From a virus: a stretch of 64,000 bases of DNA. Below the pieces are notes generated by a model. The model was not told where the DNA came from. It worked only from the letters and a program-made list of their open reading frames with translations, and did no database searches. The stretch is from IMG/VR virus record IMGVR_UViG_3300025128_006668, positions 1 through 64,000 of that record. One strand, written 5' to 3'. Of this stretch, positions 9,443 through 64,000 are shown piece by piece (positions within the stretch are counted from its first letter, which is position 1; the number at the start of each line of letters is the position of its first letter). A program made the position numbers and the translations under genes.

Positions 9443-9779
9443 GGGGGTGAAGAGGATTCGACTGTTAGTTGAAACAATAGTTGCATGTAGTAGTTGAACG
9501 AATGGCTACTATAAAAATCGTTCATACTTTTAAGTGCAGAAAAGAATTTCTCACTAGCCGCTTAGTGCGGCAGGGGTATCACAGCCCTGTAAACCAAATA
9601 GTGATGACGCAGATAAATCTGATAGAGGCTGTACACTTGAGTCATCGTGCATGATGGTAATAATTTACCTGACTCCGATAATCGGATAGCTTTGTCTGCT
9701 GTGCGACTACAACAGACTAAACATGTAGGGATTATTGCAGAGGCTAGTCAGGACGCGGGTTCAACTCCCGCCACCTCCA
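9443..9779 (+). ncRNA. ssrA: tmRNA, tag peptide (A)AEKNFSLAA
   Basis: 5' GGGGGTGAAGAGGATTCGAC and 3' GACGCGGGTTCAACTCCCGCCACCTCCA form an Ala acceptor with G3-U; resume codon GCA at 9536 after TAAGT; tag ends LAA-TAG at 9565. Confidence 0.95.
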
Positions 9780-9789
9780 CTAAAGCTTA

Positions 9790-13099: not shown

Positions 13100-13850
13100 G
13101 GATACTCAAATGAACTTCTGTGTTTTTAATATATATTCCGAAAATATAAAACAGGTAGCAGAGCTAACAATAGAGCAAAACAAAAGAGCCTATTGTAACA
13201 AGCATGGCTATGACCACATAATTGTAAAAGATAACCAAGAAAAATTTCATACAAATAGAGATTATGGAATCCCTCATTATGGATATGAAAAAATTGGTAT
13301 GGCACTAGAGCTGATATCTTCAGGCAAATACGACTGGATTTTTTGGTGCGGTAGCGATACCATGATAACTAACTTCAATATATCTTTAGACGACCTCATT
13401 GACAATAATTACGAAATGGTAGTAGCAAACGACCTATGGGGAATAAATGCCGACTCAATACTCTTTAGAGCTTCGGATAAATCTGTAGAGTTTCTCACAG
13501 AAGTCTATGAGAGCTTTCCTGACTATGTAGATGATAATGGTATAAACTACGATCATGGTATAAAACTTCCTGATGGTTCTATGAGAGGGTGGGCTGAGCA
13601 GGGTGCGATAACAGACTTACTAAAGCACGGCGAGTGGGCAACCACTGTTAAACGAGTGCCACAAAAAGTAATGAACTCTTATCTTTATCACATGTATCCA
13701 AGCCAGTGGCACTCTAAAGGAGTTGACTGTGATGGAAATGATGGTAGATGGTCTAAGGGAGACTTTCTTCTCCATCTTCCGGGAATGATAGATAGTACAA
13801 GAATAAGAATAATCAACGATGTAATGAAAGAGGTAGTAGGTAATGACTGA
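13062..13850 (+). CDS. GT34 (GMA12/MNN10-like) glycosyltransferase
   Basis: NK.AYC.KHGY, YDWIFW...D..ITN, WAEQGA, W.KGDFLLHLPG; likely ATG start at 13110. Confidence 0.8.
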   Translation: MVELAVMTGLLTKDTQMNFCVFNIYSENIKQVAELTIEQNKRAYCNKHGYDHIIVKDNQEKFHTNRDYGIPHYGYEKIGMALELISSGKYDWIFWCGSDTMITNFNISLDDLIDNNYEMVVANDLWGINADSILFRASDKSVEFLTEVYESFPDYVDDNGINYDHGIKLPDGSMRGWAEQGAITDLLKHGEWATTVKRVPQKVMNSYLYHMYPSQWHSKGVDCDGNDGRWSKGDFLLHLPGMIDSTRIRIINDVMKEVVGND

Positions 13851-53157: not shown

Positions 53158-53592
53158 ATGGCAAATAGTAGGACGGAGAAGAGCCCATATCCTTCCAGAT
53201 ATTCTCCGGGAGGATGGGTCTCTGGCTCTCAGTATATAACAGAGCTGATCTGCGAAAAAAAGGCTCGCAGAGAAAATAAGGATCTTCCTAGAAAGTTCTG
53301 GGAGGACAAGGACTGGGAAAAATATTTTAAATACCAGATAACTCTTGCAAGCCAACTTATTAAAAAGTTTGGTGAAGAAGCAGTCATAGCAGCACTAAAG
53401 GACAACAGGTGCTGGTCTACGTACTCTTTAAGGTCTCCCTTTCTAGTTCCTGTAATTGAGGAAAAGAAAAAGGAAATATCTGACAACCGGCCAGAAGCCG
53501 AGTATAATATTAAAGACGAAGAAGAAGTTACTCATAGAAGTAGCAATAACAAGAAGTCAATAATTTCTAAGTTAAGGGATTTAGATGAATAA
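53158..53592 (+). CDS. hypothetical phage protein
   Basis: ORF track; directly upstream of recA. Confidence 0.7.
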   Translation: MANSRTEKSPYPSRYSPGGWVSGSQYITELICEKKARRENKDLPRKFWEDKDWEKYFKYQITLASQLIKKFGEEAVIAALKDNRCWSTYSLRSPFLVPVIEEKKKEISDNRPEAEYNIKDEEEVTHRSSNNKKSIISKLRDLDE

Positions 53593-54562
53593 AGACATTA
53601 TCAAAGAATATGGTAATGTCCTTCACGATCCCGCCTCAATAACAGAAAGACCTTTAGAAGTCTTGTCTGTAGGCCCAAAGCTAGACATAGCTCTCGGAGG
53701 AGGCGTGCCTGAAGGTTCATTATTTATTATGACTGGCCCAGAGAAGGTCGGCAAGACAGTAACAGCTCTGACTTTCTGTGCCAATGCGCAGAAGCATTAT
53801 GAGAGGAAGATTTACTACGCGAACATAGAGGGAAGACTTAAGAAAAGAGACTTAGAAGGAATAACAGACCTTACATTAGACTCAGAAAAGATGCAAATTA
53901 TTGGCTCAACAGAAGGAAACATTCTGTCTGCCGAAAAGTATCTGAGCATTATTGACAACATTGTTCATACTCAGCCGGGATCTCTAGCTATTGTGGACTC
54001 ATTTTCTGCATTGTCAAGCGAATCTGAACTTACAGGAAACCTAGAAGATGTTCAAGTTATGAGCGTGCAAAAAGTTCTGGCTAAGTTCTGTAGAAGGATT
54101 TCTAACGTACTGCCCATCAATAGAGTCACTGTTGTTGGAATTACCCACCTGATGGCTAATATGAATAGGTTTGGGAGGGGGAAGACTAAAGTCGAAAAGT
54201 CAGGAAGCGCATTAAAATATCAGGTTGATGTAAAGCTTCATGCGAGCCACTCAACGGCTTTGATGCAAGGAGATACTCAGATAGGCCAGACTGTGCACTG
54301 GCAGATTACGACCTCAGCTATCGGGCCTCCGGGGCAGAAGGTAGAGAGCCATATTAGATATGGTAAAGGCATTTGGAAAGAAATGGAACTGACAGACTTG
54401 CTTATCGACTTCGGGCTCATCAGCAAAGCTGGAGCTTGGCTAAAGCTCCCTAATGGAGAAAAGATTCAAGGTAAAGTCAACTTGGCCAAATACTTAGAAG
54501 AGAACCCTGAGCAGTATGAGACATTTAGAAAAGAAGTGTTTGAAATGGTTGGTATGGAATGA
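53585..54562 (+). CDS. recA: RecA/UvsX-like recombinase
   Basis: LDIALGGG.P.G, GPEKVGKT, IVDS, SG.ALKY, I.YGKGI, K.GAW. Confidence 0.9.
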   Translation: MNKDIIKEYGNVLHDPASITERPLEVLSVGPKLDIALGGGVPEGSLFIMTGPEKVGKTVTALTFCANAQKHYERKIYYANIEGRLKKRDLEGITDLTLDSEKMQIIGSTEGNILSAEKYLSIIDNIVHTQPGSLAIVDSFSALSSESELTGNLEDVQVMSVQKVLAKFCRRISNVLPINRVTVVGITHLMANMNRFGRGKTKVEKSGSALKYQVDVKLHASHSTALMQGDTQIGQTVHWQITTSAIGPPGQKVESHIRYGKGIWKEMELTDLLIDFGLISKAGAWLKLPNGEKIQGKVNLAKYLEENPEQYETFRKEVFEMVGME

Positions 54563-54957
54563 TGGATACAAAGTGCTCCCAAGCCTACGAATGCAAGATA
54601 TTCATAGGTTCAAAAAACGAATACTTAAAACAATATTTCGATAGAAGCATATTGCTAGAATATATACAAGGCTTTCAGGACAACTACCATAAACTTATAC
54701 CAGTGCGAGTAACAGGGACGGAATTTGTATGTGGGAGCAAGTATCAGGAGTCAGGTTGGGAAATAGCTGTTATAAACTACCCTAAGCTAGACCTTTGCAT
54801 AGAAGAAATCGAATATTTCTGCGAACAACTAACGGAGTATCTTACAGACCGTCTAAGGCAAAAGAGAGTCACCCTCATGACTCCAAGCATTAGCACTATG
54901 TATTACACTCCGTTATGCTTTCCACAGTCGGCAAGTAGTAAGGCTGCCTCGCCTTAA
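54559..54957 (+). CDS. hypothetical phage protein; 3' end overlaps RNA motif copy A
   Basis: E.GWEI..INYP...L...L.Q.RVT motif; ATGA overlap with recA. Confidence 0.7.
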   Translation: MMDTKCSQAYECKIFIGSKNEYLKQYFDRSILLEYIQGFQDNYHKLIPVRVTGTEFVCGSKYQESGWEIAVINYPKLDLCIEEIEYFCEQLTEYLTDRLRQKRVTLMTPSISTMYYTPLCFPQSASSKAASP

Positions 54958-54986
54958 CTAAGGCTGTGCGACAACTTAATGAGGTA
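54917..54986 (+). ncRNA. pseudoknotted RNA motif, copy A
   Basis: CTTTC, P1 CACAGTC/GGCTGTG, inner stem TAAGGC/GCCTTA, loop TGCCTC pairing with tail GAGGTA. Confidence 0.7.
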
Positions 54987-54991
54987 CTTAG

Positions 54992-55408
54992 ATGAAGATA
55001 CGTGATCTGAATAATGATATTCACAAATGGAATCTGCAGGGGTATGTTGTTCGTGCAAATGAACAGCGTCCCCGATCTAAGTTACATCTTGCCGCAAGAA
55101 ACATATTGATAGAAATGTTTCCCACTGTTCAGATATTAGAAGAGGTTCTAATTCCAATAACTCGCAACGAAAGAGGTTATCTGGATTTTTACATCAATAC
55201 GCTTAAGCTTGCTGTAGAGGTTCATGGGCAGCAGCACTATAAATTCAATTCACTATTCCATACATCTGCCCAAGATTTTGCAAATCAACGAAAAAAAGAC
55301 CGGCGAAAGCAGGAGTGGTGTGAGTATAATAATATAACGTATCTTGAGTTACCTTATAATGAAGGCATTGAGGAATGGAAAACGCGAATAGTCCAAAGGA
55401 ACGACTAG
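54992..55408 (+). CDS. PD-(D/E)XK endonuclease (DUF559/Vsr-like)
   Basis: LDFYI....LAVEVHG.QHY, D.RK.EWC..NNI...E..Y. Confidence 0.8.
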   Translation: MKIRDLNNDIHKWNLQGYVVRANEQRPRSKLHLAARNILIEMFPTVQILEEVLIPITRNERGYLDFYINTLKLAVEVHGQQHYKFNSLFHTSAQDFANQRKKDRRKQEWCEYNNITYLELPYNEGIEEWKTRIVQRND

Positions 55409-58812: not shown

Positions 58813-59061
58813 ATGACTTACAGAGAAAGTGCTATTGAGTTTCTATGGAGAAGCGCACTAACTGACCAATCAAAAGCACTCGCATCGCTACAGCTTCTGC
58901 TGGATCACGGTACAGGTATCGGAGACCATTCAACAGAAGACCTGCACTCAAATCTTGAGGATGCGTTATCTACGCTTGCTGACGCTGAGGATAGACTTGA
59001 GACTTTAAATAAATACTTCCGTCCGCCAGAGGGCGAAGAGCAACAGTCAGAGGAGGTATAA
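58813..59061 (+). CDS. hypothetical phage protein
   Basis: GIGDHST motif, helical; AAGGAG RBS. Confidence 0.7.
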   Translation: MTYRESAIEFLWRSALTDQSKALASLQLLLDHGTGIGDHSTEDLHSNLEDALSTLADAEDRLETLNKYFRPPEGEEQQSEEV

Positions 59062-59063
59062 CT

Positions 59064-59837
59064 ATGACTCAAATTCTAGGCTTTGCCGGCAAAAAACAAA
59101 GCGGCAAAAATACTTTATGTAACTATATAGTAGCTATGAAGCTGGCTGAGCTTGGAATATGCTCTGAGTCTAGACTGTCAACTTCCGGAGACATAGAGAT
59201 TACAGATGTATTCGGGGAGAAAAAGAAAGGTGTAGAGTGGATTCCGTTTTCTCAGGAAAACATGAATGTAGAACTACTAAGGACAGAGCATCTGGATAAG
59301 TATGTGAAAATTTATGGCCTTGCAGATACACTCAAGGATATGTGTGTTAATATTTTAGGGCTCTCTCACGATCAAGCATACGGTACAGATGAGGATAAAA
59401 ACTCAAACTCTACCATCAAATGGGAGGATATTCCTACTTGGGAAAACAGCAGCCTAAATAAAAACAGGGGCTTTATGACCGCTAGGGAAGTGCTCCAGTA
59501 TGTGGGTACGGATATATTTAGAAAGCTAGATCCAGACGTGTGGATAAAAAGTCTATTGAGAAAAATAGAAAAAGACTCTCCTGAGCTTGCTCTTATATGC
59601 GATGTTAGATTTGAGAATGAAGTCTTGCACCTTAAAGATGCTGGGGCTACTGTAATTGGTCTCACAAAAGATAAGTTCAAGGGTCAGGATGTACACTCTA
59701 GTGAAGCGTTAGTGCAGGATGCTCTTGATAATTGCTCCTTCCTTATTCAGAACGAAGATATGACAATACAGCAGCAGTGCCTCAAGCTTTATGAGATACT
59801 ATCTGACAGAACCAATCTCCTTCCGAAGGTCTTATAA
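59064..59837 (+). CDS. deoxynucleoside monophosphate kinase
   Basis: GKKQSGKN, AD.LK, T.REVLQ..GTD, DVRF.NE, H.SE. Confidence 0.88.
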   Translation: MTQILGFAGKKQSGKNTLCNYIVAMKLAELGICSESRLSTSGDIEITDVFGEKKKGVEWIPFSQENMNVELLRTEHLDKYVKIYGLADTLKDMCVNILGLSHDQAYGTDEDKNSNSTIKWEDIPTWENSSLNKNRGFMTAREVLQYVGTDIFRKLDPDVWIKSLLRKIEKDSPELALICDVRFENEVLHLKDAGATVIGLTKDKFKGQDVHSSEALVQDALDNCSFLIQNEDMTIQQQCLKLYEILSDRTNLLPKVL

Positions 59838-60875
59838 ATGTCAATACCTATAGTCTACTTTAGAAGTAGCTCTTTCAACTCACACAGAATGTGTCCTATG
59901 CAATATTACATGGAATATACTCTTGGTTGGAGAGGGTCATCTGGAAAGAAAGCTGACAAAGGAACTATTGTTCATAAGGTTCTTGAGTTGTGCGCACTTG
60001 CAAAGAAAGCCTTGCAAGATGGTCATGAAATTTTTAAAGATAATGAGATTGGTGAGATAGAAACTGCTAACTATGATACAGAATATCTAGATGAAATTAT
60101 TGATAGGGTATACGAATATTATACATCTAGAACTACACATCATGACTGGAAGCCATTAGACCTAAAGCATTGCCGAAAATGGGTTTGGAAAATATTCAAT
60201 GACGACGACGGATTCTTTGATCCTAAGAACAGAACAGTTGTAGAAGCAGAACCACACTTTGACTTTGAAGTAGATGAAGAATGGGCAGAATATAGTTATA
60301 CCTTAGATGATGGTACCGTCTTGGAGGGGAAGCTAGCGCTAAAGGGAACAATAGACCTTATAACAGATGTGGGAGACGGAGTCTATGAGATAATAGACTG
60401 GAAGACTGGCCGCAGACTTGACTGGGCTACAGGAAAAGAAAAGACGATGGCAAAGTTGCAGAAAGATCCACAGCTAAGGATGTATCATCTAGCATGCAAA
60501 AAGCTTTACCCAGATGTAGAAACATTTTTAGTAACTATCCACTTCATGAATGACGGCGGTCCTTTTACACTCCATTTTCAAGATAGCGATATACCTGAGA
60601 CATTAGAGATGATAAGGGCAAAATTTGAGACAATTAAAGACACTAACTTTCCTCAACAAATAAAGTCATGGAAATGCAGCAAGCTTTGTTCTGCGGGAAA
60701 AACCACATACGAAGGAACAGATGTCAAAGTCATGGGCAACATGTTTGGAGCTCCGCTAACAAAGTGCCAGCAGACAGAAGCTATGATAAAAGAGAACGGA
60801 ATAGAGTGGGTGACAAGTAACTGTATGTCCCCAGAACATGAAATAGGTAAGTATAAAGCTCCCGGAGAAGTATGA
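59838..60875 (+). CDS. Cas4/AddB-like PD-(D/E)XK exonuclease
   Basis: N-terminal CP, GT.VH, GTIDL, IIDWKTG, QL.MY, C-terminal C...C...C. Confidence 0.85.
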   Translation: MSIPIVYFRSSSFNSHRMCPMQYYMEYTLGWRGSSGKKADKGTIVHKVLELCALAKKALQDGHEIFKDNEIGEIETANYDTEYLDEIIDRVYEYYTSRTTHHDWKPLDLKHCRKWVWKIFNDDDGFFDPKNRTVVEAEPHFDFEVDEEWAEYSYTLDDGTVLEGKLALKGTIDLITDVGDGVYEIIDWKTGRRLDWATGKEKTMAKLQKDPQLRMYHLACKKLYPDVETFLVTIHFMNDGGPFTLHFQDSDIPETLEMIRAKFETIKDTNFPQQIKSWKCSKLCSAGKTTYEGTDVKVMGNMFGAPLTKCQQTEAMIKENGIEWVTSNCMSPEHEIGKYKAPGEV

Positions 60876-62221
60876 TGTACGCAACAGAGATTAGTCGAGG
60901 AAGGAAGCTGCTAATACCTAAAAGCAACATACAGGCAGAACAGTTTATTCAGAAGGAAGCAGCGTTCTTTATGTCCTGTGTTAATGCTTATATAAGGGAG
61001 CTACTAGAGTGGATAAACATATCTGACTTTGAAGTTACTGGCATAACTGATCATGGAGAAGTGTACCTAAGAGAAGAAGATAACGGTTTCTTTGTTGGGC
61101 CAAACGGAGGGTTCTTCGCACCAATAACAAAGAGAAAGAATGGAGAGCCGTTTGCGAAACCAAAGTGGAGTGATACACAGCTAAAGGCGATGTTTTGTAA
61201 TGTATTTAATGAGACGCATACTCATGATTCTTGCGCGTCTTGGAAATTAAATATTATTGCTAACGGTGCTAATAAGATAAAGTCCTCTATAAAGCGATTC
61301 AAAAAGAGGGGCGACTCATATGCTGATTATATCAAAGACATGAAACCGCCTGTTATAACCAACCCTACTATCTGCCACAAAAAGGCTTTAGCAAAGATTA
61401 AAGATGATGCCTTAGTAATAAGAGGGGCTAACAAACAGGAGGTCAAGATAAAAGACTTTTTTATACCCTACAAAAAGTATACAAAAGTTCATAAGAAGAC
61501 ATTTGGAGGAAACTTAGTTTTATCGAAAAAGAAAAATAGTAAGCATAACGAATACACTATAATGATCAAGTGCAAAAAGCATTTCTATTCTCCTTTAGGA
61601 TGGATAGGTATGGACATAAACAAATACAACCCTGAGTGGCTTGCCATAGCGGAAGATGCCAAAGATGGTTTCTACAACATACTTCCTAAGCCTGATAATA
61701 TTGATAAGATAGAAAAGATTAGAGATGACATAGACAAGATGATCGACAACAAGGAAAGATCATCAGGATCGACTAAGAGAAGAGCAAGATTAAGAAAAGC
61801 AAAAGATAGGGCTGTATCAGCGTATAGAAGAGAAATCAAAAAGTTTTTACTCCCGATGTTAGACTTCGTACAGTTATGTCGATTTGGACTTTGCTTAGAC
61901 GGTGTTGCTACAAAAGGAAGAAGCTTTGGTCAGCAAGAAATAAATTCTATACTTGAGAAAGAATGTATAAAGAGAAACATTCCCTTTGCTATGACAAATC
62001 CTAGAATGACTACTAGGTCTTGTTATTATTGCGAAGAGAATAATCCTAGGCCTAAAACCTCTGGGCCAGATGCGGGAGTCTACATTTGTGGAAACCCTCT
62101 TTGTCCTAAGTTTGAGTCTAGGGAAATTCCCCATGTAAATGCCGCTAGAAACATAGCAAGGCAGGGTAAGAAACGCTTTCTAGAGTCGGCGGTAGAAGAG
62201 GGTATAGCTAGCCCTGCTTAA
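60872..62221 (+). CDS. tnpB: TnpB/Cas12f-like RNA-guided protein with altered RuvC site
   Basis: RuvC-I IGMDIN, RuvC-II LCLDGV, NPRMTTRSCYYC...CGNPLC Zn finger, RuvC-III PHVNAARNI. Confidence 0.8.
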   Translation: MMYATEISRGRKLLIPKSNIQAEQFIQKEAAFFMSCVNAYIRELLEWINISDFEVTGITDHGEVYLREEDNGFFVGPNGGFFAPITKRKNGEPFAKPKWSDTQLKAMFCNVFNETHTHDSCASWKLNIIANGANKIKSSIKRFKKRGDSYADYIKDMKPPVITNPTICHKKALAKIKDDALVIRGANKQEVKIKDFFIPYKKYTKVHKKTFGGNLVLSKKKNSKHNEYTIMIKCKKHFYSPLGWIGMDINKYNPEWLAIAEDAKDGFYNILPKPDNIDKIEKIRDDIDKMIDNKERSSGSTKRRARLRKAKDRAVSAYRREIKKFLLPMLDFVQLCRFGLCLDGVATKGRSFGQQEINSILEKECIKRNIPFAMTNPRMTTRSCYYCEENNPRPKTSGPDAGVYICGNPLCPKFESREIPHVNAARNIARQGKKRFLESAVEEGIASPA

Positions 62222-62246
62222 GGCTCTACGATAACATAAATAGCTA
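62175..62246 (+). ncRNA. pseudoknotted RNA motif, copy B (overlaps the tnpB stop)
   Basis: CTTTC, P1 TAGAGTC/GGCTCTA, inner stem AGGGT/GCCCT, loop TAGCTA pairing with tail TAGCTA. Confidence 0.75.
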
Positions 62247-62250
62247 CTAG

Positions 62251-62325
62251 CCTTTCTACTGTCGGGCATATAGTTAAGTGGGCGACCAGCTTAAACTGAG
62301 GCAGTACGTAATTCTTATTGGTCGC
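62251..62325 (+). ncRNA. pseudoknotted RNA motif, copy C
   Basis: CTTTC, P1 TACTGTC/GGCAGTA, inner stem TTAAG/CTTAA, loop GCGACCA pairing with tail TGGTCGC. Confidence 0.75.
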
Positions 62326-62342
62326 TTTTAAAAGGATGTATA

Positions 62343-62888
62343 ATGATAAAGCTAGACTTCACAGAAGAGATGGTGAAAAGTGCTAGAGAAAAAGCACAAT
62401 CTCTCGGGGCCATAAATAACTCTATACTCAAGGGCGGTGGAAATGTTGCCGGATACCTTGGAGAGGAGGCTCTTGCTCCGTTTATCGGCGCTGAAATAGT
62501 CAGTAACAATAGAGGTCTAGATAAGTACAATCATGACCTACTCCTACAAGATGGTCACAGAATAGAGGTTAAAACAAAAAGGAGGACTGTCGCGCCAAAA
62601 CCTTACTACGACGTATCTGTTGCCAAAACAAGCAAGCACCAACAGCCAGACATATATGCTTTTATTAGTATAGAATTTCAAAGGGCTAGCTCAGGGCATC
62701 CTAAACAATATTTCGGACTAAAGAACATCTGGCTATGTGGATTTATGGGCGCACACGACTACTGGGATATGGCAAAACTGTGGAAAAGTGGACAAATTGA
62801 CAAAAGAAATAACTTCAAAACTCATGTTGACATGTATAATTTAGAGATAGCGGATTTACACAAAGACTTGTCAGGAATACTTGTATGA
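62343..62888 (+). CDS. PD-(D/E)XK nuclease-like protein
   Basis: G.LGE, HD.......IEVKTK, D.Y.F. Confidence 0.75.
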   Translation: MIKLDFTEEMVKSAREKAQSLGAINNSILKGGGNVAGYLGEEALAPFIGAEIVSNNRGLDKYNHDLLLQDGHRIEVKTKRRTVAPKPYYDVSVAKTSKHQQPDIYAFISIEFQRASSGHPKQYFGLKNIWLCGFMGAHDYWDMAKLWKSGQIDKRNNFKTHVDMYNLEIADLHKDLSGILV

Positions 62889-64000
62889 AATACGTACCTT
62901 TACACGTGCATAGCGAATACTCATTACTAGACGGATTATCTAAAACATCAGATATTTACAGTCGTCTAGAACAAATAGAAACAGATGCATGTGCCCTAAC
63001 CGATCATGGAAGCGTCAGTGGCGCTGTTGATTTTCATAAGACTATATCCAAGGGATACAAACCTATTCTTGGGTGTGAGCTTTATCTTTCCACGCAGAGT
63101 GCAAAAATAAAAGAGCCCGACAATTCTAAGCTTATGCATCAAGTTGTTCTTGCTAAAGACCTAGAAGGATGGAAAAAGCTTCTAGCTCTTGTTTCTCAAA
63201 GTAATCGACCAGATAATTTCTACTACAAACCTAGAATAGGTCTCGATGAGTTCTTGCAGAGCTGCGCATCTGATTACTCCTTAGTATCATTCAGTGGTCA
63301 TTTGGGATCTAGACTTGGGAATTTATGCTTGAACAATGCTGACTGGAGAAGAGATGCCGCAAGAGAGGCAGAGAGGATGCAGGAGTCTTTTGGCAAGGGA
63401 AACTTTTTTATAGAGATCCAGCTTATAGACTCGCTAATAAATAAAGAAGCAAAAGAAGTTGCAGAGAAGTTAAGAGAGATAGCTAATATAACTAGGATAC
63501 CTACTGTTGCCACCCCCGATGCACACTATTGCAGAAGAGAAGATGCTCATGACCAAAGGGTCCTTTTGTGTACTGCCCTTAGGAAAAGCATAGGTGAGAT
63601 ACAGAGGGAAATAAAGCAGGGCAAGTCAGCAGCTATGGAAACCTTCTTTAAGTCTGACAACTACCATATTCCTACATATGAAGAAATGAAAGAGCACCAT
63701 ACAGATGAAGAGTTAGATAATACTCTAGCTATAGCCGATATGTGTTCTAGCTATGAAATATTAGGGCCTCCTAACCCTCCTGAATTTAAATGCCCTGACG
63801 GAATGTCTCCTAATGATTATCTCCGGGCCTTATGCAGAGATGGTTGGCGCACAAAAATGGCTCATGTAACAAAAGGTGATGAGCTTTTCTTAGGCTATGG
63901 GCAGCGGGTAGATAAAGAGATAGATATTTTTACTGAGACCAATCTCTCTAGCTACTTCTTGATAGTGCGAGATATCGTCGAAGAAGCTACAAAAAGGGGA
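62885..64000 (+). CDS. dnaE: DNA polymerase III alpha subunit, truncated by the window end
   Basis: Read by hand: LHVHSEYSLLDG, ALTDHG, KPILGCELY, FYYKPRI, DAHY; runs off the window. Confidence 0.93.
   Translation, partial: MKYVPLHVHSEYSLLDGLSKTSDIYSRLEQIETDACALTDHGSVSGAVDFHKTISKGYKPILGCELYLSTQSAKIKEPDNSKLMHQVVLAKDLEGWKKLLALVSQSNRPDNFYYKPRIGLDEFLQSCASDYSLVSFSGHLGSRLGNLCLNNADWRRDAAREAERMQESFGKGNFFIEIQLIDSLINKEAKEVAEKLREIANITRIPTVATPDAHYCRREDAHDQRVLLCTALRKSIGEIQREIKQGKSAAMETFFKSDNYHIPTYEEMKEHHTDEELDNTLAIADMCSSYEILGPPNPPEFKCPDGMSPNDYLRALCRDGWRTKMAHVTKGDELFLGYGQRVDKEIDIFTETNLSSYFLIVRDIVEEATKRG

Follow-up and report, generated by a model that had tools for sequence, protein, structure and literature searches.

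A putative laterally exchanged phage cassette combining a TnpB/Cas12f-superfamily gene with pseudoknotted RNA units: a candidate RNA-dependent RuvC enzyme

Introduction

Descendants of TnpB that have left transposons are known in four groups: effectors of CRISPR systems, components of CRISPR-associated transposons (CAST), TldR repressors and dCas12f activators. The locus considered here raises the question of whether a phage gene of this descent has followed one of these routes or a different one. It lies in the first 64 kb (64,000 nucleotides, hereafter the window) of the 125,401-bp IMG/VR virus record IMGVR_UViG_3300025128_006668 (CheckV completeness 52%), in which an open reading frame (ORF) of 449 amino acids (aa) at positions 60872–62221 of the plus strand encodes a TnpB/Cas12f-like protein with a non-canonical RuvC site, followed by short structured RNA units. 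An earlier note on this DNA had read the gene, which it placed inside the replication operon, as a phage-domesticated RNA-guided regulator or anti-defence factor, citing nuclease-dead TnpB derivatives (TldR) and Cas12m as RNA-guided DNA binders, or alternatively as a nuclease with atypical chemistry.

The account favoured here, tentatively and at a little less than an even chance, is that of a selected, laterally exchanged, single-copy cassette encoding an RNA-dependent RuvC enzyme, from a phage offshoot of TnpB/Cas12f, together with its pseudoknotted partner RNAs. The gene and its own RNA units would travel as a 1.47-kb cassette, inserted precisely between an exonuclease gene and a gene for a 181-aa protein; the protein would bind the unit RNAs as its scaffold and work as a RuvC enzyme that depends on RNA, with a functional metal site in which the Asp-Asp-His (D-D-H) residues would be catalytic; and the cassette would be an accessory element exchanged between phage genomes, with a lifestyle resembling that of homing endonuclease genes and not that of a fixed transcription factor. 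We infer that the protein targets a nucleic acid. The clade would then add a different outcome to those already known for TnpB descendants off transposons.

Fold and family of the protein

Taken as a single sequence, the protein (plus strand, 60872–62221) is only faintly recognisable: PF07282 (the Cas12f1-like TNB domain) scores 20 bits, below its cut-off of 26.3, no PHROG family was found for it, and a search of the PDB by sequence gave no meaningful match. Its membership of the TnpB/Cas12f superfamily, which the earlier note had supposed, is nevertheless settled at the level of sequence and modelling, because two independent routes, a predicted structure and a family profile, agree. An AlphaFold2 model built from a seven-row alignment (predicted local distance difference score, pLDDT, 75.3; predicted template-modelling score, pTM, 0.58) was compared with the PDB by Foldseek and gave 61 matches at E ≤ 0.001; among the matches listed, all were Cas12, TnpB, Fanzor or CasX chains, the best being Cas12f 9nzr_B (1.5e-12), AsCas12f 8j12 (1.0e-11) and TnpB 8h1j (3.7e-10).

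The second route began from a word-indexed search that returned seven relatives, whose alignment (A1) then served as the profile for an exhaustive HMMER search; this recovered 936 representative proteins at E ≤ 0.001, of which 199 lay at ≤ 1e-10 and 89 at ≤ 1e-30. A profile of 60 members (A4) matched 33 distinct PDB sequences at E ≤ 0.01, each of them Cas12, TnpB or Fanzor, and its positions 19–387 align to OsCas12f (9nzq_A) near full length with an E-value of 4.5e-20. According to both Foldseek and the profile alignment, the WED/REC/RuvC/TNB architecture is retained, and the four cysteines of the C4 zinc finger in the TNB domain (Cys384, Cys387, Cys406 and Cys411; 62021–62104, plus strand) are invariant across the 60 rows. 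PF07282 exceeds its cut-off in 32 of 32 scanned relatives, and PF01385 (the OrfB_IS605 core) in none of the same 32.

Clustered at 50% identity, the clade so defined amounts to no fewer than 146 representatives, a large group with protein lengths of 390–490 aa, and it is almost confined to phage contigs. A sequence pattern of the subfamily (A5) occurs at 23 loci in viral contigs against one in 185,579 prokaryote genomes, the lone locus lying on a 3.4-kb contig of a Flavobacteriales metagenome-assembled genome (MAG). Among 50,697 deposited phage records, tblastn with the 449-aa protein and two relatives found no full-length member, just TNB-domain matches to ordinary TnpBs. In the literature covered, which left subscription journals and supplements outside its scope, no description was found of this group of proteins or of RNA units alternating with tRNA genes next to a TnpB-like gene.

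The RuvC site and its constraint

The three motifs reported in the earlier note (GMDIN, LCLDG and HVNAARNI) are present in the ORF, and their assignment as a D-D-H site is borne out by the alignment of the 60-member profile to OsCas12f. Asp248 of GMDIN (codon 61613–61615) falls on the RuvC-I Asp of OsCas12f (LGVDMG), Asp343 of LCLDG (61898–61900) on the RuvC-II Glu of IQMEDL, and His421 of HVNAARNI (codon CAT, 62132–62134), all on the plus strand, on the RuvC-III Asp of NADFNASQNI. The canonical Asp-Glu-Asp triad is thus absent both from the query, which has Asp-Asp-His, and from the family, which has Asp-Asp-(His/Asp/Gln).

How strictly each position is kept was read from 147 rows, comprising the query and 146 relatives of at least 300 aa (7 of 153 sequences were dropped as fragments). 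Asp248 and Asp343 are Asp in 147/147 rows, the latter never Glu; at the third position 63 rows have His, 62 have Asp and 20 have Gln, with Ala and Gly in one each. A FastTree tree of these rows requires no fewer than 18 changes of the third residue; counting well-supported branches only, His, Asp and Gln still account for 10, 7 and 8 forced changes, respectively. The protein retains the RuvC-III motif xNAAxNI and a complete, untruncated C-terminus. Against a 92%-identical copy in a related locus (L002), the ratio of nonsynonymous to synonymous divergence (dN/dS) is 0.14, and reading frames of 449–450 aa are intact in all nine full-length loci of the window protein's own clade. With the invariant Asp pair and zinc-finger cysteines, this ratio identifies a selected protein and not a decaying remnant. 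The D-D-H site is, at the level of these alignments, a family trait, constrained though non-canonical, and not a private decay; that the two Asp never vary speaks for a metal site that works.

Precedents for such a site point both ways. Altered RuvC-III motifs are described for six large TnpB branches, and nuclease activity is argued to be kept in branches with a conserved Asp-to-His change (Altae-Tran 2023; PMC10691335). RIIIr-4, the most extensive among them, is an Asp-to-His branch described as "specifically represented in viruses" and believed to have kept its activity (PMC10691335). The present clade resembles it in the change at RuvC-III, where His421 aligns to the catalytic Asp; in the available description, however, RIIIr-4 is without the C4 zinc finger, which is invariant here, and His, Asp and Gln alternate within the present clade. 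On account of the zinc finger the clade is not filed under RIIIr-4; it may or may not be among the six branches of that study, and is set apart from RIIIr-4 by the description given there (PMC10691335).

Beyond the TnpB lineage, both Asp and His occur as the final catalytic residue of active Argonautes, which share the RNase H fold. Cas12m2 offers the opposite precedent: its His-Asp-Asp site is described as binding one Mg2+ and its complex as binding DNA without cutting (PMC10442227). It is like the present protein in carrying Asp where RuvC-II usually has Glu, in the single His of its triad and in keeping a conserved non-canonical site; it differs in that the His stands at RuvC-I there and at RuvC-III here, in length (596 aa against 449 aa), and in the CRISPR array, which the present locus lacks, no repeat array having been found in 59000–64000.

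Structured RNA units

The earlier note had also reported structured RNA repeats after the gene. This holds as two tandem pseudoknot units recognised by comparison; single-sequence folding and repeat finding, by contrast, were uninformative, the fold of 62150–62345 being no better than shuffles (z −0.41) and a repeat finder on 59000–64000 returning nothing notable. The comparison drew on five viral and several metagenome loci with the same gene order, whose TnpB-like proteins are 45–47% identical to that of the window. Where the protein is just that similar, the 121-nt spacer 3' of the ORF is nearly invariant, and RNAalifold finds helices with compensatory changes that extend across the stop codon.

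Two tandem units are recognised at the locus because a sequence model of the unit (R1) also matched the stretch just upstream of the first one identified. The upstream unit, B1 (62171–62246, plus strand), overlaps the last 51 nt of the ORF and scores 13.6 bits (E 0.25) with R1, in whose training it had no part; its helix a pairs 62181–62187 with 62222–62228, so placed that the 3' strand begins right after the stop codon. The second, B2 (62247–62332, plus strand), forms helix a from 62255–62261 and 62300–62306 and helix b from 62282–62288 and 62319–62325, an interleaved pseudoknot that is followed by a U-tract; its nucleotide identity to the loci with 45–47% identical proteins is approximately 90%. 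A solo unit, A (54913–54994, plus strand), with helix a at 54923–54929/54962–54968 and helix b at 54945–54951/54980–54986, covers the 3' end of a 132-aa gene (54559–54957) and extends to the ATG of a 138-aa gene (54992–55408), its b' strand including a GAGG ribosome-binding site. Unit A scores 67 bits with R1 and 75 bits with R2, both of which had it in their training sets; R1 scores derive from sequence only, and R2 and a further model, R3, are structure-checked covariance models.

Nine units of the window type align cleanly and have in common a pair of interleaved helices, whose strands run a, b, a', b'. In these, 93.3% of cells are paired and 11 of 16 pairs have changed on both sides; none of 500 shuffles did as well, and controls slid along the sequence were 27–45% paired. 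An independent set of ten units of other variants and loci (A8) gave 86.5% of cells paired and 9 of 15 pairs changed on both sides, with none of 500 shuffles as good on four of five measures and slid controls at 42–51%. The structure belongs to the sense transcript, because G·U pairs occur on the plus strand only.

The units are approximately 70–85 nt long, and other family members carry one to seven of them beside the gene, terminal units being followed by U-tracts. What varies within a unit is limited to the helix cores and a linker of 6–10 nt, with no guide-like or spacer-like insert. The 3' tail after helix a' measures 19–21 nt, half of which pairs with strand b, and could serve as an internal guide. 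Rfam returned no match at E ≤ 10 on 62120–62360, and on a second family locus (L040) only tRNAs and sub-threshold chance rows; the units are a new structured RNA family absent from Rfam. An exact 15-mer scan of viral contigs gave 19 loci, five of them real and all five already among the known loci, and a metagenome scan added no further RNA lineage.

Site polymorphism and probable lateral exchange

The gene keeps its position in nine full-length loci, but in the genome of an equally related phage (G001; locus L062) the site is empty: the stop codon of the exonuclease gene overlaps the ATG of the 181-aa homologue, with nothing between. The two phages are as close as other carriers are to the window, with identities of 85% for the exonuclease, 77% for the helicase, 72% for the primase and 69% for the 181-aa protein. 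This empty site defines the insert of the window, a cassette of 1471 bp (60872–62342, plus strand) that consists of the TnpB-like ORF, the two RNA units and a new ribosome-binding site for the downstream 181-aa gene, and that is bounded by ATGAT on both sides.

The only family member of G001 lies some 6 kb upstream, is 27% identical to the window protein and has units on both sides. It sits between homologues of the window genes at 54559–54957 and 54992–55408, that is, at the site of solo unit A in the window; in other related phages, too, this site is occupied by a family member of their own. The earlier note's wording, domesticated and inside the replication operon, would imply a gene that is fixed and inherited vertically; in view of these two observations, the empty site and the 27%-identical member elsewhere, it is not supported as stated.

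Further comparisons agree. Protein identity among members drops to 27–47% where the flanks are 69–88% identical, and at least four different gene contexts occur across the family, in which other members adjoin genes for RuvB, UvdE, SSB, Pol III alpha, tRNAs, or HTH_8 or sigma-like proteins. Synonymous divergence (dS) from L002 is 0.27 for the TnpB-like gene and 0.51–1.01 for its flanks, which is weak evidence of recent exchange because the identity profile against L002 is mosaic. As far as these sequence comparisons go, the history of the gene is uncoupled from that of its flanks, and it is not a stable core gene.

Free-standing homing endonuclease genes are familiar residents of large phages, examples being the seg and mob genes of T4. 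The cassette resembles them as an intergenic putative nuclease gene in DNA-metabolism and tRNA regions, with a history uncoupled from its flanks, and in being present in some close relatives and missing from another at one exactly defined site between genes, here seen with one empty genome; it differs in protein family and in having an RNA partner.

Association of the units with the gene and with tRNA genes

In the 125.8 kb scanned for the record itself, the best model detects no units other than A, B1 and B2, all of them training members and two of the three at the 3' end of the gene. Across 414 kb of family loci, R3 gave 32 matches, 32/32 on the strand of the gene, and 27/32 lie within 1 kb of a family gene, upstream and downstream alike, a count that is a weak control because the loci reach just some 5 kb to either side of the gene. 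In a complete genome of 173.8 kb (G002), which has one family member and five units, three of the five are no more than 310 nt from the gene, the remaining two being approximately 8 kb away, one on each side. Four related loci (L002, L003, L005 and L006) have solo unit A at the matching position. Units A, B1 and B2 are one sequence variant, and phages with another type of protein carry another variant at site A.

In several phages the units are interleaved with tRNA genes. The order in L040 is tRNA-Met, unit, tRNA-Arg, unit, gene, unit, tRNA-Leu, so that three of three units abut tRNAs; in G002 it is unit, tRNA-Ile, unit, gene, unit, tRNA-Leu (three of five abutting), with one further unit directly before the 5' end of the transfer-messenger RNA (tmRNA) gene; in L039 two of five units abut tRNA genes, and the layout of L055 is similar. 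Units wedged in this way have 0–6 nt to spare between their neighbours, and ordinary tRNA processing would free them as discrete RNAs of approximately 70 nt. The tRNA-Asp and tRNA-Arg genes of G002 have no unit beside them.

Two further arrangements were observed. At L076 13544–13611 (G002, approximately 53.3 kb) a unit stands before a tmRNA-like 5' end, and the permuted tmRNA that ARAGORN places at 13393–13822 contains the unit. Arrays of three to seven units surround the family gene in L039 (6259–6451) and L041 (4041–4767 and 6194–6535), some abutting and some 50–300 nt apart with unique sequence between them.

Transposase, guide and target searches

In agreement with the earlier note, no transposase was found: profiles of Y1 transposase (PF01797) and serine recombinase (PF00239) had no match in the 125-kb record, with positive results in control genomes. 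A family-profile search found one family member per record in 6/6 records; neither TnpA nor the multiple copies and IS (insertion sequence) ends expected of a transposon-borne TnpB were found, in an own record that is 52% complete. Relative to TnpB and Cas12f the locus thus presents a mixture of likeness and difference. Fold, domain order and a TNB zinc finger between RuvC-II and RuvC-III are shared, as is a pseudoknotted structured RNA that, like omega-RNA, begins within the ORF's 3' end and runs on downstream of it. On the other side, the triad is Asp-Asp-His here and Asp-Glu-Asp there; TnpA is not found, the gene is single-copy, and the PF01385 core stays below its cut-off in 32 relatives; and the RNA consists of short repeated units of 70–85 nt that lie on either side of the gene, sometimes between tRNAs, with no recognisable boundary between scaffold and guide. 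Structured RNA over the 3' end of the ORF, as expected of an omega-RNA, is present, and the searches for its guide or target returned none.

One candidate target, a 15-mer shared between 62184–62198 and positions 96073–96087 of the record (minus strand), was taken as chance, because the second stretch is unrelated coding sequence and both encode the same four residues (SAVE).

Weighing the explanations

Sequence alone cannot decide between a cutter and a DNA binder. The cassette with an RNA-dependent RuvC enzyme is preferred on the combination of selection, an invariant Asp pair, co-occurring RNA units and a polymorphic insertion site, and a number of points weigh against it. As regards the protein, the AlphaFold2 model derives from only seven sequences and its template-modelling (TM) scores to solved structures are just 0.25–0.35; the low scores are attributed to a flexible multi-domain protein and a shallow alignment, and model geometry is therefore not relied on. 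Gln at RuvC-III in 20 of 147 rows argues against strict catalysis, and in Cas12m2 the Asp at the Glu position is described as too distant for a second Mg2+, the same Asp-for-Glu change being universal in the clade (PMC10442227). As regards the RNA, the pseudoknot model derives from the same sequences that were used for its pair counts, and binding of the units by the protein is suggested solely by their position and by matching sequence variants. Wedged units leave just 1–6 nt outside the fold, into which a canonical external guide of 16–20 nt does not fit, and exact 11-mers of 62160–62345, together with 20-mers after each unit (in G000 and in the complete G002), found chance-level matches only (15–17 of 20). 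As regards exchange, the comparison includes a single genome with an empty site, and with a mosaic identity profile against L002 the low dS may reflect ordinary recombination.

A bolder version of the RNA-dependent enzyme is unlikely, and is offered as speculation. The protein would then represent a novel type of nuclease dependent on RNA, one that has a rewired Asp-Asp-(His/Asp/Gln) RuvC site, uses discrete pseudoknot RNAs of approximately 70 nt, has no canonical external guide and reads its target through the 19–21-nt 3' tail inside the pseudoknot, spreading between co-infecting phages or excluding competitors. Because units lie between tRNA genes in some phages, they would be cut free by RNase P and RNase Z of the host, and the tRNA-interleaved units would be a natural counterpart of engineered tRNA–guide-RNA arrays.

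The strongest competitor, on the unlikely side though to be taken seriously, is a nuclease-dead or attenuated RNA-guided DNA binder of the TldR, Cas12m or dCas12f-sigma type that would regulate phage or host transcription, with the units as guide scaffolds and with the solo unit and the gene-end units marking the regulated sites. Its attractions are several. The Asp-for-Glu change with one His recalls the site of Cas12m2, in which the non-target strand is described as bound via one Mg2+ with no cutting (PMC10442227), and 20 of 147 rows have Gln at RuvC-III; the gene is single-copy in 6/6 records; and unit A stops at the ribosome-binding site that serves the first replication-block gene. At two distant members, 28–33% identical to the window protein, the gene is flanked by HTH_8 and Sigma70_r4/GerE proteins (L008, 3746–9284; L033, 4909–6998), and at a third (L060, 6140–6586) it is followed by a small Sigma70_r2 protein, three distant loci that recall the dCas12f-sigmaE systems described from Bacteroidota (PMC13472631). 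TldR, as described in its available account, supplies the precedent of a 97-nt pseudoknotted scaffold with a guide of just 9 nt, and TldR and dCas12f-sigmaE share with the present gene their TnpB/Cas12f descent, the absence of a transposase and a pseudoknotted scaffold-type RNA.

Several differences stand against it. TldR and dCas12f are described as having lost catalytic residues or the RuvC-III segment, whereas here the two Asp are invariant in 147/147 rows and the C-terminus is not truncated; no guide–target or guide–promoter match was found; beside the gene in the window itself stand the exonuclease, a protein without assigned family and Pol III alpha, none of them of sigma or HTH type, and they offer no link to a regulated gene; and the position of the gene varies between equally related phages, the gene-end site (site B) being empty in one of them. 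A nuclease-dead regulator, the reading that the earlier note's precedents suggest, is not supported as it stands, given that no guide or target was found and that the two Asp residues never drift as they do in TldR and dCas12f. On an anti-defence role, the other suggestion of that note, the results bear in neither direction.

Whichever of these holds, the answer would be informative, the clade's RNA partner being unusual in form and layout and its metal site constrained but non-canonical. If the site is active, the clade shows which RuvC substitutions are tolerated and offers compact enzymes of 390–490 aa with small RNAs; if inactive, it represents an RNA-guided regulator that phages encode to control their replication genes. 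In both cases, the empty site and the occupied one together supply a natural test substrate.

A third explanation, which we consider doubtful, is that the protein acts on RNA, binding or cutting transcripts at the units and thereby maturing or stabilising tRNA- and replication-region RNAs by means of its RuvC site. TnpB processes its own mRNA into omega-RNA through RuvC, and the layout is suggestive: units abut tRNA genes on both sides (3/3 in L040, 3/5 in G002 with one before the tmRNA, 2/5 in L039), they overlap ORFs at their 3' ends and reach as far as the start codon that follows, and they leave no room for an external guide. Most tRNA genes of the same genomes, however, are without a unit, among them the four tRNAs and the tmRNA of the window and the tRNA-Asp and tRNA-Arg of G002, and the protein retains the full WED/REC/TNB architecture for handling DNA.

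Slimmer still is the prospect that the units are autonomous RNAs which travel with the gene without being bound by its protein, whether as minimal self-cleaving ribozymes of the HDV-like (hepatitis delta virus-like) theta type or as structured terminators. Theta ribozymes are described at tRNA 3' ends of Bacteroidota phages, in sense orientation (PMC10879173), and like the units they combine an interleaved double helix, a length of approximately 70 nt and a sense orientation with a place abutting tRNA 3' ends; the phages that bear the units probably infect Bacteroidota as well, and the sole non-viral locus of the family is in the Flavobacteriales MAG. Helices a and b covary in the order a, b, a', b', which corresponds to P1, P2, P1', P2' in HDV-like ribozymes; the expected place of P3 is occupied by a short conserved UCUU...GAG, with the positions for P3 and P1.1 invariant, so that no covariation can be seen there; and a C-A-A-A just before the last strand, the place of the catalytic C of J4/2, is invariant in the A8 set (10/10). 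The U-tracts after terminal units would suit terminators.

Against a ribozyme stand the first nucleotide of helix a, where C or U stands opposite G or A in place of the G1 that defines HDV-like cleavage, the absence of CAAA from the window-type units, and the lack of any Rfam match, HDV-like ribozymes included, at E ≤ 10 in 62120–62360. Against autonomy in general stand the clustering of the units at the TnpB-like gene, and not at tRNAs generally, and a sequence variant that tracks the resident protein.

That the gene is a decaying, sporadic IS remnant without function, the outcome which the earlier note had set against its own reading, is almost certainly wrong: the failure to find a transposase, the sub-threshold Pfam match and the non-canonical triad would fit it, but frames of 449–450 aa are intact in 9/9 full-length loci, dN/dS against L002 is 0.14, both Asp (147/147) and the four zinc-finger Cys are invariant, and the RNA carries compensatory changes.

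Gene neighbourhood and further observations

All long ORFs of the window lie on one strand, and around the cassette the order is DnaB-type helicase, primase, 82-aa gene, deoxynucleoside monophosphate (dNMP) kinase, exonuclease, TnpB-like gene, 181-aa gene and Pol III alpha. The helicase shows at most approximately 30% identity to that of any deposited phage. Directly upstream of the cassette, the 345-aa exonuclease gene (59838–60875, plus strand) had been called Cas4-like; this stands at the level of the PD-(D/E)XK (RecB/Cas4) superfamily, and the more specific assignment is to an exonuclease (PF12705, E 9.8e-21; PHROG exonuclease phrog_69, E 5.7e-23). Its TGA and the ATG of the TnpB-like gene share the ATGA overlap noted earlier.

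The 181-aa gene downstream of the cassette (62343–62888, plus strand), whose homologue in G001 directly follows the exonuclease gene, has no Pfam or PHROG match, and neither database has a family for the 138-aa protein (54992–55408) beside the site of solo unit A. Both proteins contain short motifs, recognised by eye, which we take to be reminiscent of PD-(D/E)XK or Vsr-like endonucleases. Two genes upstream of solo unit A lies a gene for a RecA-family recombinase (53585–54562; PF00154, E 6.8e-25).

Four tRNA genes (Glu, Asp, Met and Arg) and a tmRNA gene with the tag AEKNFSLAA occupy 13–240, 1338–1410 and 9443–9782 of the window; none of the five has an RNA unit beside it.

Among related loci, the Pol III alpha gene is split into several ORFs (630, 225 and 545 aa) in L003, L005 and L006 (8001–12309), and that of L060 (2070–4076) has a weak intein-splicing match (PF14890, 26 bits, below cut-off); split Pol III alpha genes of this kind may reflect inteins or intervening genes.

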